Under the pieces are notes generated by a model that ran no database searches, was not told the DNA's origin, and saw only the letters and a program-made list of their open reading frames with translations. Position numbers and translations under genes: made by a program. DNA of 61,827 nucleotides, the filler included, from Sanchytrium tribonematis (lineage: Eukaryota), in assembly GCA_018985235.1 (NCBI GenBank). It is 12 parts of 12 records of this genome, joined end to end, with 100 filler letters (N's around TTAATTAATTAA, not from the genome) between each part and the next. Parts side by side here need not be neighbours in the genome. Positions count along the whole stretch, not along the records: positions 44,160 to 47,640 come from JADGIG010000857.1; 11 more parts are not named here. One strand, given 5' to 3'. This document shows, piece by piece, positions 44,276 to 45,991 of this stretch (its first letter is position 1; each line of letters opens with the position of its first letter).

Positions 44276-45991
44276 ATGAAGCACTCGGATAAAGACAAAT
44301 TGTCTCATTTCTTACAAGAAGTTGAAGAGCCTCAGATGAGTGCAAGACAATCAGATGATCGCAATATATGGCTTGCATATTTTGAGAAATATTTGAGTTA
44401 TTATTACCCGGATTGTTTTCCTGGGTGCTTTAGAATATCAAAGCCTCCTTACGGAGACAGACAGGCTGTTGATCTTCTTTATCCTTATTACAAATATTTT
44501 CTTAGAAAAGGTAACTATTCTGATCAGAAAGGTTTGTTCGTGTATGTCTTGCCAAGCAGCGTCATAGAATCTGCAGAGGAAGACTTTTCTAGTGAGTCGC
44601 CCTTTTTAACTCAAAAACTTGCATTTAAAAAGAAATTAAACATTTTCACTTTTCCAAGATTACCACATTTGTACTCACACAACGCTGGTTGGAGCTTTAA
44701 ACCACAACCGTTTCAAAATATTGGTGATAGAGACTATTTAAATGCTTGTGTTGCACTTCGTGATCAAATGGAAACTATAATGTTGGATAAAATTGGATAT
44801 AAGCGCCATATGTTATTATTGGACATTTCCAATTTTTATGGCTCTATTTATAGTCATACTATTCCATGGCTGCTACAGTCTCAAGCAGCGCATCTTGATG
44901 CTCATAAGTCTGATTTAGGTATTGGATGGTTTAATCGAATTGACAAACTTGTTCAGAAAGCAAAGGGAACCAGAGCCCACGAACTGCCAACAGGATCGAT
45001 GATATTTCATGATATTGCAGAAATGGTTCTAAGACTTTTAGATGAGCACATTTATAATGAAATAATCAATGAATTGATACTTGGTGGGGTTTTAGATTCT
45101 AATAATGAAATCGTGACAAATCAGGATGTTTACCTCGTCAGACGAAGCGATGATATGCGAATTATCGTTCCTAAAACTGTACCTTTGGACTCTGTTCGAG
45201 CAACAGTGGGTCGAGTTCTTATAGAATTTGAGTTGCATTTGAATGCGACGCCAATTATTCCTATTGAAAAGGAAAATTTATCGTTGGCTCTAGATAAAGA
45301 TTTACTGATTTTGTGCGATTTCCAAAGCATCGATTTCAGTGATCCCGAGTCCATTGATCATATATGGGATAGAGTCATTCCATGTGTGGAGCACATTGTG
45401 ATTCTGTTTGACTTTTTAATACTTGAAAATATTAATAGGAAGACTGCTTATTCGATAGCCAATGGATTCATCGATACCTTTAAAGATTTGTTGATCGCAC
45501 CAGGCGTGCAGGCAATGTCGTTTTTGTGGTATTTGAGTTATTACAATTTGTTTGAATTTACAAAGCACAGGAAAGATCATATTGTTAATTTACTAAGATT
45601 AGATGCAAGAGTGCAATTATTTGACGCAAATCGATCTAGAACATTGCTGAATCCTTTTGAAATTCTAGTAAGACTCTATCAATGTAAACTAGATCTTGGT
45701 AAAAATGTAAAGTCACAAGCATTTCCAATGCCTAGTATAAACGGACTCTCCTTTGACCGTGCCATCACCATTTTATTCAATGGACTGAATGAGCAGCTTA
45801 GAGAATTGAGAAACAAGGCCAAATATTCAGTTTATGATTCTGATCCTGGATATAATTGCATGTTTCTCGTAAAATATGCTGGGTCATGGAGGTACCAAAA
45901 CGATTCAAATATTAATCCTATCAACGCATCCAGCCTCGAAGATATGTTGAGGGGAATGAGTCGATATGAGGGCGAGACAAAGACCAGATGA
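44276..45991 (+). CDS. Reverse transcriptase-like protein of the bacterial UG/Abi (AbiK/DRT-like) class
   Basis: FRISK...R...LLYP, LLLDISNFYGSIYSHTIPW, NRIDKLVQ, ELPTG...DIAEMVLRLLD, VRRSDDMRI, EFELHLN in correct RT order; helical-looking C-terminal region; the frame is open from 44171. Confidence 0.85.
   Translation: MKHSDKDKLSHFLQEVEEPQMSARQSDDRNIWLAYFEKYLSYYYPDCFPGCFRISKPPYGDRQAVDLLYPYYKYFLRKGNYSDQKGLFVYVLPSSVIESAEEDFSSESPFLTQKLAFKKKLNIFTFPRLPHLYSHNAGWSFKPQPFQNIGDRDYLNACVALRDQMETIMLDKIGYKRHMLLLDISNFYGSIYSHTIPWLLQSQAAHLDAHKSDLGIGWFNRIDKLVQKAKGTRAHELPTGSMIFHDIAEMVLRLLDEHIYNEIINELILGGVLDSNNEIVTNQDVYLVRRSDDMRIIVPKTVPLDSVRATVGRVLIEFELHLNATPIIPIEKENLSLALDKDLLILCDFQSIDFSDPESIDHIWDRVIPCVEHIVILFDFLILENINRKTAYSIANGFIDTFKDLLIAPGVQAMSFLWYLSYYNLFEFTKHRKDHIVNLLRLDARVQLFDANRSRTLLNPFEILVRLYQCKLDLGKNVKSQAFPMPSINGLSFDRAITILFNGLNEQLRELRNKAKYSVYDSDPGYNCMFLVKYAGSWRYQNDSNINPINASSLEDMLRGMSRYEGETKTR

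Follow-up and report, generated by a model that had tools for sequence, protein, structure and literature searches.

An apparent sanchytrid offshoot of class 1 antiphage reverse transcriptases with eroded polymerase residues

Results

A gene of the fungus Sanchytrium tribonematis encodes a protein, P0001, whose family is a real and apparently undescribed eukaryotic offshoot of the class 1 UG/Abi reverse transcriptases (RTs) of bacterial phage defence. Judged by its residues, the family is polymerase-eroded: positions that are invariant in bacteria have decayed, while a His/acidic pair that aligns with the RNase site of DRT4 has not. The branching inside antiphage RTs, together with the retained RNase residues and the lost polymerase residues, points to a likely acquisition from bacteria and leads us to predict an RNA-cutting role in defence. 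The reading that we tentatively prefer is therefore a sanchytrid multi-copy family that is nested among the class 1 defence RTs of bacteria, has lost most of its polymerase residues and would act as an RNase defence effector.

The RT gene and its contig

The window, which is the whole stretch of 61,827 nucleotides analysed here, consists of 12 contigs separated by linkers of the form N44-TTAATTAATTAA-N44, which occur at 11 places (e.g. 44060-44159). Since the linkers are artificial, neither an ORF that enters one nor a gene neighbourhood that spans one is genuine, and the true context of the RT gene is only its own contig of about 3.5 kb (44160-47640), bordered by a linker at either end. P0001 is encoded there on the plus strand, as are all features of this contig given below, by a stop-free ORF of 571 codons (44276-45991) counted from the ATG at 44276. 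The frame is also open upstream to the contig edge (44162-44275), with a second in-frame ATG at 44198 that would yield 597 amino acids. The start of P0001 is therefore uncertain and may lie within this extension or off the contig. Similarity between the extension and the N-terminus of the family member P0002 was not significant, being reached by 2292 of 5000 shuffles. None of five start variants of P0001 was present in a collection of 15 billion proteins, where five neighbouring window proteins, including a kinase from the same contig, occur as EukProt entries.

The preliminary description of this locus had reported an intact ORF of about 571 amino acids with ordered RT motifs, and both are real. 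The motifs lie at 44429 (FRISK), 44819-44869 (LDISNFYGSIYSHTIPW, with the Asp codon at 44822), 44981 (ELPTG), 45014 (IAEMVL), 45140-45154 (RRSDD) and 45233 (LHLN). The reading of FRISK..R as the fingers hairpin had to be given up, as an AlphaFold model and a deep alignment placed the hairpin at residues 72-91 (44489-44548; strands 72-77 and 86-91) with Leu87 at the Arg position. Lys56, taken for the hairpin lysine in a five-sequence alignment, was dropped on the same grounds. Motif A includes Asp183 and His194, the motif B region ELPTG..IAE spans 44981-45022, and the palm motif LHLN..P (45233-45253) retains Asn323.

The C-terminal helical stretch fared differently along its length. It is helical with good model confidence up to about residue 430, forming a lobe (residues ~332-430; 45269-45565) in the place of the thumb, whereas residues 431-571 mostly have a pLDDT below 50 and make up a variable tail (45566-45988). 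A Pfam search of P0001 returned no family at E 0.01, in line with the described lack of endonuclease, RNase H, integrase, maturase and gag domains. The locus contained no long or flanking repeats and had no Rfam match.

P0001 belongs to class 1 UG/Abi RTs

Profile searches, trees and fold agree that P0001 descends from class 1 UG/Abi RTs, as had been proposed. Its best PADLOC profiles were AbiP2 (E 2e-22), Drt6 (2.7e-21), AbiK (6.6e-18) and UG14 (1.7e-17). The AbiP2 score of 77.7 bits, over residues 177-324, compares with 365-551 bits for true Abi-P2 members, and the NCBIfam Drt4 score was 43.7 against a cut-off of 450. All nine matches in a sequence search of the PDB were AbiK, Abi-P2, DRT6 or DRT4 (AbiK E 2.4e-8). 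With sub-member scores and a clade of its own, P0001 is by these measures not AbiK, Abi-P2, DRT4 or DRT6 proper.

We inferred two trees, both built without rvt and TERT. The broad tree was based on the RT core (79 rows, 145 columns, LG+G4), after removal of 14 of 93 rows that were redundant or partial outgroups, and of the fragment P0012. The family received a support of 100/95 and fell inside class 1 (96/96, or 99/95 with DRT8). RTs that we took to be of group II intron, retron, DGR and DRT3a type, partly from their motifs and partly from the search that fetched them, fell outside class 1. In the focused tree (34 rows, 372 columns, mixture model), the 15-sequence family clade was supported at 99/98 inside class 1. 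The family was weakly sister to Abi-P2 in both trees (84/87 and 84/60) and not to DRT4. P0001 thus nests where the preliminary description had expected it, and the broad tree, whose coverage ends short of rvt, showed none of the groupings with RTs of group II introns, retrons or DGRs that would have spoken against a defence RT.

The AlphaFold model of P0001 was built on 146 rows, mostly class 1 RTs, and had a pLDDT of 68.2 and a pTM of 0.73. It was confident over residues ~50-430 except 131-149, with a pLDDT of about 70-85 for the helices at 332-430. A single-sequence model (pLDDT 33.8) was discarded. VIA-align Z scores were highest for AbiK (19.3, aligned over residues 23..521), Abi-P2 (17.2), DRT4 (17.1, over 33..425) and DRT6 (15.8), followed by AbiA (13.0); the next class was DRT2 at 11.9. 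Foldseek ranked Abi-P2 (E 1.5e-12), UG15/DRT4, DRT6 and AbiK at the top, so AbiK and Abi-P2 are among the best fold matches, as predicted. Because class 1 RTs dominated the model alignment, the agreement in fold does not count as evidence separate from the sequence result, and the C-terminal helical (alpha-Rep) lobe that replaces the thumb was likewise seen in a model guided by class 1 rows.

Two other origins were considered and rejected. A group II intron, retron or DGR RT was set aside on the lack of a Pfam match and of an Rfam RNA and on the position of these types outside in the broad tree. An LTR or non-LTR retrotransposon was set aside since no Pfam domain and no long repeats were found and its folds scored lower, with a Z of 11.4 for R2 and of 10.8 for LINE-1 where class 1 reached 15.8-19.3.

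A multi-copy family in two sanchytrid genera

Searching 1.84 billion representatives with a two-sequence profile yielded 1,068 matches at E 0.001. With the best 150 of the 1,068 considered, 14 proteins from these searches grouped with P0001 in the family clade, which makes 15 sequences in all, with P0159 representing its fragment P0011. Sources were traced for 11 of the 14, leaving out P0012, P0022 and P0142. The six members with a named source are all EukProt proteins of sanchytrids, three from S. tribonematis and three from Amoeboradix gromovi. Two of them are numbered as successive genes of a single 7.2-kb contig, and five further members lie on ENA/NCBI contigs of 2.5-22 kb. As a sanchytrid sequence, P0001 would not add a third independent lineage to these two. 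P0001 shares 23-33% identity with the family members in local alignments. These paralogs in two genera support the proposed domestication, with expansion of the family; the window itself contained no RT paralog of P0001. The three paralogs per named genome would also argue against rvt, with the provisos that the tree includes no rvt and that the N-terminus of P0001 is uncertain. Sanchytrid fungi, the hosts of the family, are parasites of algae.

Pattern scans, which are sensitive to close matches only, detected no prokaryotic or viral family member. In GTDB (185,579 prokaryotic genomes), one scan gave 2/66 stretches, both of DRT3b type, and another 0/49. Scans of IMG/VR gave 0/37, 0/4, 0/118 and 1/93, the single case being UG30, and those of JGI gave 0/588 and 1/309, the latter a DRT4; neither belongs to the family. 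Among the phage and plasmid tblastn matches listed, identity was 24-29%, and no match covered more than 28% of the query. Word-index protein searches recovered P0002 and P0008 alone; they missed known members and are therefore uninformative on the range of the family. In the ESM Atlas, the nearest clusters to P0001 were bacterial RTs (0.95); the value for the C-terminal part by itself (0.85) is a lead at most.

Two further proteins stood out in the search. P0142, a 300-aa fragment with the motif RCRDN, splits off early within the family on a long branch and could point to the donor side or to a further host lineage. P0078, a 600-aa RT resembling DRT6, has the complete Asp triad, and its S/T/Q-rich low-complexity termini look eukaryotic. 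It was the top-scoring non-member against the family profile (121.8 bits), yet it branches with DRT6, and could represent a second, separate eukaryotic acquisition.

Polymerase residues are eroded across the family

To follow single residues, we set 14 family rows against 132 further rows of class 1, of which 22 came from named prokaryotic or phage loci and 110 were search matches. The fingers Arg that positions the dNTP was present in 131/132 of the other rows and in none of 11 family members, ten of which have Leu; in P0001, Leu87 was equated with this Arg from its column in the alignment and from the hairpin in the model. The motif A Asp, found in all 132 other rows, was present in 6 of 13 family members and absent in seven. 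No family member (0/14) had the YxDD Tyr, against 109 of the 132 others plus 14 with Phe, and 11/14 carried an Arg at this site (Arg290) that no other class 1 row has. While the first motif C Asp (Asp292) was invariant (14/14), the second was confined to P0001 (1/14 versus 132/132). The palm Lys was retained in nine of 14 compared to 132/132, with Pro326 in its place in P0001. Consequently, P0001 is the only one of the 14 with the full Asp triad (D183, D292, D293).

These positions matter in characterized relatives. Placement of the dNTP in DRT4 depends on Arg75, Asn271 and Lys274, with Asp149/240/241 as the metal ligands, and defence is weakened or lost in the R75A and D149A mutants (PMC12783706). 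In AbiK, long products are lost in Y245A and all activity is lost in D247N (PMC9508834). The literature we found on a change of the last Asp holds double mutants only, with no single Asp-to-Asn change.

The intact triad of P0001 is likely secondary. P0001 nests among members with Asn or Thr at the third Asp (98/95 and 99/98), and a tree with P0001 outside the rest of the family was rejected (p-AU 0.0013), a rejection that is not final since P0001 is a long branch. Because P0001 is nested among Asn members, Asp293 is likely a reversion, and its codon (GAT) is one base change away from Asn.

These observations bear on the possibility that at least P0001 and the RRSDN subgroup are still active, protein-primed and template-independent polymerases like AbiK and Abi-P2. 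P0001 carries all three Asp residues, and within the family the motif A Asp persists in six of 13 members and Asp292 in every one of 14. The YxDD Tyr site is naturally variable in class 1 RTs, with Leu in 16, Asn in eight and His in seven of 246 rows. Some viral RNA polymerases work with an Asp-Asn motif. Y42 and Y154 are candidate priming tyrosines of P0001, and Tyr154, present in 7/10 members, lies near the position of the DRT4 priming residue Tyr125; the position of the priming Tyr differs among AbiK, Abi-P2, AbiA and DRT4 (PMC12783706). Against activity, P0001 lacks both the hairpin Arg and the palm Lys, Asp293 is placed among Asn/Thr members and requires a single base change, and seven of 13 members are without the motif A Asp. 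We thus regard a retained polymerase as rather unlikely. The AbiK-like protein-primed DNA synthesis raised in the preliminary description is unsupported, since polymerase residues are eroded family-wide and the triad of P0001 is probably secondary.

The RNase dyad of DRT4 is retained

DRT4 His160 and Asp192 form an RNase HD motif at the trimer-trimer interface according to one preprint (10.64898/2026.10.21.760695), and a second finds the RNase activity to depend on dNTPs (10.64898/2026.10.27.754916). A HMMER alignment with the solved DRT4 chain matched them to His194 and Asp223 (44942-44944) of P0001. His194 was retained in 13/13 family members and an acidic residue at 223 in 14/14 (eight Asp, six Glu). 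The other class 1 rows had His in 132/132 and Asp in 131/132. Near-invariance across class 1 makes the dyad compatible with RNase activity but not diagnostic of it. W218 and K230, which match DRT4 W187 and K199, were common in the family and rare in other class 1 rows.

Several points weigh against an RNase effector. The dyad is near-invariant in all of class 1 and so may be kept for the fold. DRT4 defence depends on polymerase activity and on the ssDNA that the enzyme itself makes (PMC12783706, 10.64898/2026.10.21.760695), neither of which could come from a polymerase-eroded protein, and the accessible parts of 10.64898/2026.10.21.760695 and 10.64898/2026.10.27.754916 report RNase activity among class 1 RTs only for DRT4. 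The Glu in six of 14 members, the lack of a sister relationship to DRT4 and the three Asp residues of P0001 would also fit an RNase effector less well.

If the H/D pair is structural, the family could be a domesticated pseudoenzyme with neither activity, serving as a nucleic-acid-binding scaffold or decoy in a cellular or parasitic role, for instance in the algal host. Long open frames kept at about 19-33% identity among paralogs while catalytic residues decay would agree with this. However, Asp292 is invariant and the new Arg290 is conserved in 11/14, which suggests a ligand-binding pocket under selection, and a crude hydropathy scan of ten members found no signal-peptide-like hydrophobic N-terminal segment. 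We consider a pseudoenzyme just as doubtful as a retained polymerase.

Allelic variation and residence in the host genome

One Logan contig of 2,429 bases (depth 108.8) spans 44391-46819, covering most of the RT gene and half of the adjacent kinase gene. It came from the single run containing the stretch, which may be the assembly's own source. Allele bubbles were near 50:50 in both genes (49.8/43.2 and 67/52.4). The RT alleles differ by three non-synonymous and one synonymous codon, the kinase alleles by zero and seven (Fisher p 0.024, or 0.067 with adjacent changes counted once, on tiny numbers). One RT allele also lacks 42 bases (14 codons) in frame near the N-terminus (44297-44338). The RT changes fall in the low-confidence N-terminus and a P0001-specific insertion, outside the core. 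The data, tiny in number, fit fast evolution outside the core.

The allelic excess and the many, highly diverged copies are also what would be seen if the genes were drifting remnants left by repeated integration of a mobile or viral element. This is improbable, given that the changes spare the core, that frames are intact at deep divergence, and that we detected no flanking repeats, RNA family or mobility domain at the locus and no member among IMG/VR contigs in pattern scans.

The kinase gene (46320-47339, +) encodes an S/T-P-rich N-terminus, with eight S/T-P sites in the first 90 amino acids, and a Pfam Pkinase domain (2.1e-20). Its best PDB matches were animal kinases (E ~1e-9), and its exact sequence is in EukProt. 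We regard it solely as a host marker. The window also carries the eukaryotic housekeeping genes MCM3, RPN2, PIG-M and Pan3. The codon use of the RT gene was mid-range among 31 window ORFs (GC3s 0.299, CAI-like 0.698). Tetranucleotide and dinucleotide signatures were uninformative, as the window contigs were not separable from 39 low-GC prokaryotic or phage loci. Linkage to the kinase, host-like codon use and EukProt paralogs place the RT gene in a eukaryotic genome, and the contamination that had been named as a refuting outcome did not occur. Although the assembly is fragmented and concatenated, the gene is intronless and the only run with the stretch may be the assembly's source, contamination or a chimeric join with bacterial or symbiont DNA is very improbable because RT and kinase lie on a single Logan contig of even depth and share its allele bubbles, codon use is host-like, two genera with separate assemblies have paralogs on contigs of 3.7-17.9 kb, and no clade member appeared in the GTDB pattern scans.

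Elsewhere in the window, a pair of neighbouring, mutually related ORFs of exonuclease/endonuclease/phosphatase type (41510-42550, -, PF03372 E 1.2e-5, and 42952-43311, -) lies on one contig next to a DEAD-box helicase and may have arisen by tandem duplication of a nuclease gene. A low-GC contig carries three divergent kinase ORFs in tandem (33736-36573, -), 33-37% identical and with a low GC3s of 0.16-0.21, which are a lineage-specific kinase expansion. Long ORFs of 360-770 amino acids at 27323-29620 (+), 30120-31715 (+), 49638-50720 (+), 52753-54702 (-) and 8378-9511 (-) had no Pfam match.

Discussion

A bacterial origin of the family with subsequent domestication is highly probable. Granting this origin, the chance that its residues denote an RNase-type effector comes close to even without quite reaching it. 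In the proposed sequence of events, a class 1 RT would have been acquired from bacteria before the split of Sanchytrium and Amoeboradix, the direction and age of the transfer being our inference. Expansion in copy number and loss of most polymerase residues would have followed. A P0001-type protein may assemble as a trimer or hexamer like its relatives, and the remodelled polymerase pocket with Arg290 and Asp292 could bind a nucleotide or single-stranded nucleic acid and so act as the gate. The His/acidic pair would then cleave RNA at the trimer-trimer interface, as in DRT4, in defence against viruses or other invaders or in cell death. We infer such an antiviral or cell-death role from sequence. 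The full course, in which sanchytrids adopted a bacterial defence RT of class 1, multiplied it, took its DNA polymerase apart and retained the RNase site in a predicted nucleotide- or ssDNA-gated immune or cell-death effector, is a speculative chain and on balance unlikely to be correct in every step.

We found no report of class 1 DRT/Abi genes in eukaryotes in a literature search that covered few subscription papers. In the sanchytrid genome paper (PMC8371127), 'transcriptase' is absent from the text and none of four RT terms occurs in the readable supplements. The main UG/Abi survey, Mestre 2022, removed eukaryotic sequences beforehand (PMC9226505). In the DRT10 preprint (PMC12632851), TERT and Penelope are tied to class 2, and its accessible text names no eukaryotic class 1 gene. 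The family would be a further route of UG/Abi RTs into eukaryotes, beside TERT/Penelope and rvt, and, if true, the first eukaryotic descendant of AbiK/DRT4-type systems. It would also be a natural experiment in which DRT sensing and killing are uncoupled from DNA synthesis, and the family bears on the open question of how AbiK-type enzymes kill. A lineage with lost polymerase residues and a retained DRT4 RNase dyad offers a direct way to ask if class 1 RTs act in general through RNA cleavage.

Comparison with known systems

Abi-P2 (PDB 7r08; Figiel 2022, PMC9508834) resembles P0001 in being a single gene with an RT lobe and a helical lobe. It gave the best PADLOC profile and the best Foldseek match, and is the weak sister of the family in both trees. 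It differs in motif C (YRDD versus RSDD), shares 16% identity and has member scores far above the 77.7 bits of P0001; the family, unlike Abi-P2, is eukaryotic and multi-copy. AbiK (PDB 7r06) was the top VIA match (rmsd 4.2 over 352 residues), aligns over motifs A and B and has the three Asp residues also present in P0001. Its Tyr245 is replaced by Arg, its hairpin Arg96 by Leu (from the alignment column), and it has a priming Tyr44 where P0001 has only candidate tyrosines.

DRT4/UG15 (PDB 9vdo; Wang 2025) is similar in fold, and its H160/D192, W187 and K199 are all matched in P0001. DRT4 needs R75, K274, Y238 and an ssDNA product (PMC12783706), whereas P0001 has Leu, Pro and Arg at the three sites. 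The profile of DRT6/UG12 (PDB 9wy8) matched 13/13 family members, and DRT6, like the family, tolerates non-aromatic residues at the YxDD Tyr. Unlike the family, it keeps the full Asp triad and the hairpin Arg, and its clade is separate.

Non-mobile RT genes akin to UG/Abi were already represented in eukaryotes by rvt (UG37) and TERT (PMC9226505, PMC12632851). Of these, rvt is single-copy, has an N-terminal coiled coil and is unclassified within UG/Abi (PMC9226505), while TERT groups with class 2 (PMC12632851). The sanchytrid family differs from both in that it is class 1, multi-copy and so far found in one fungal phylum.
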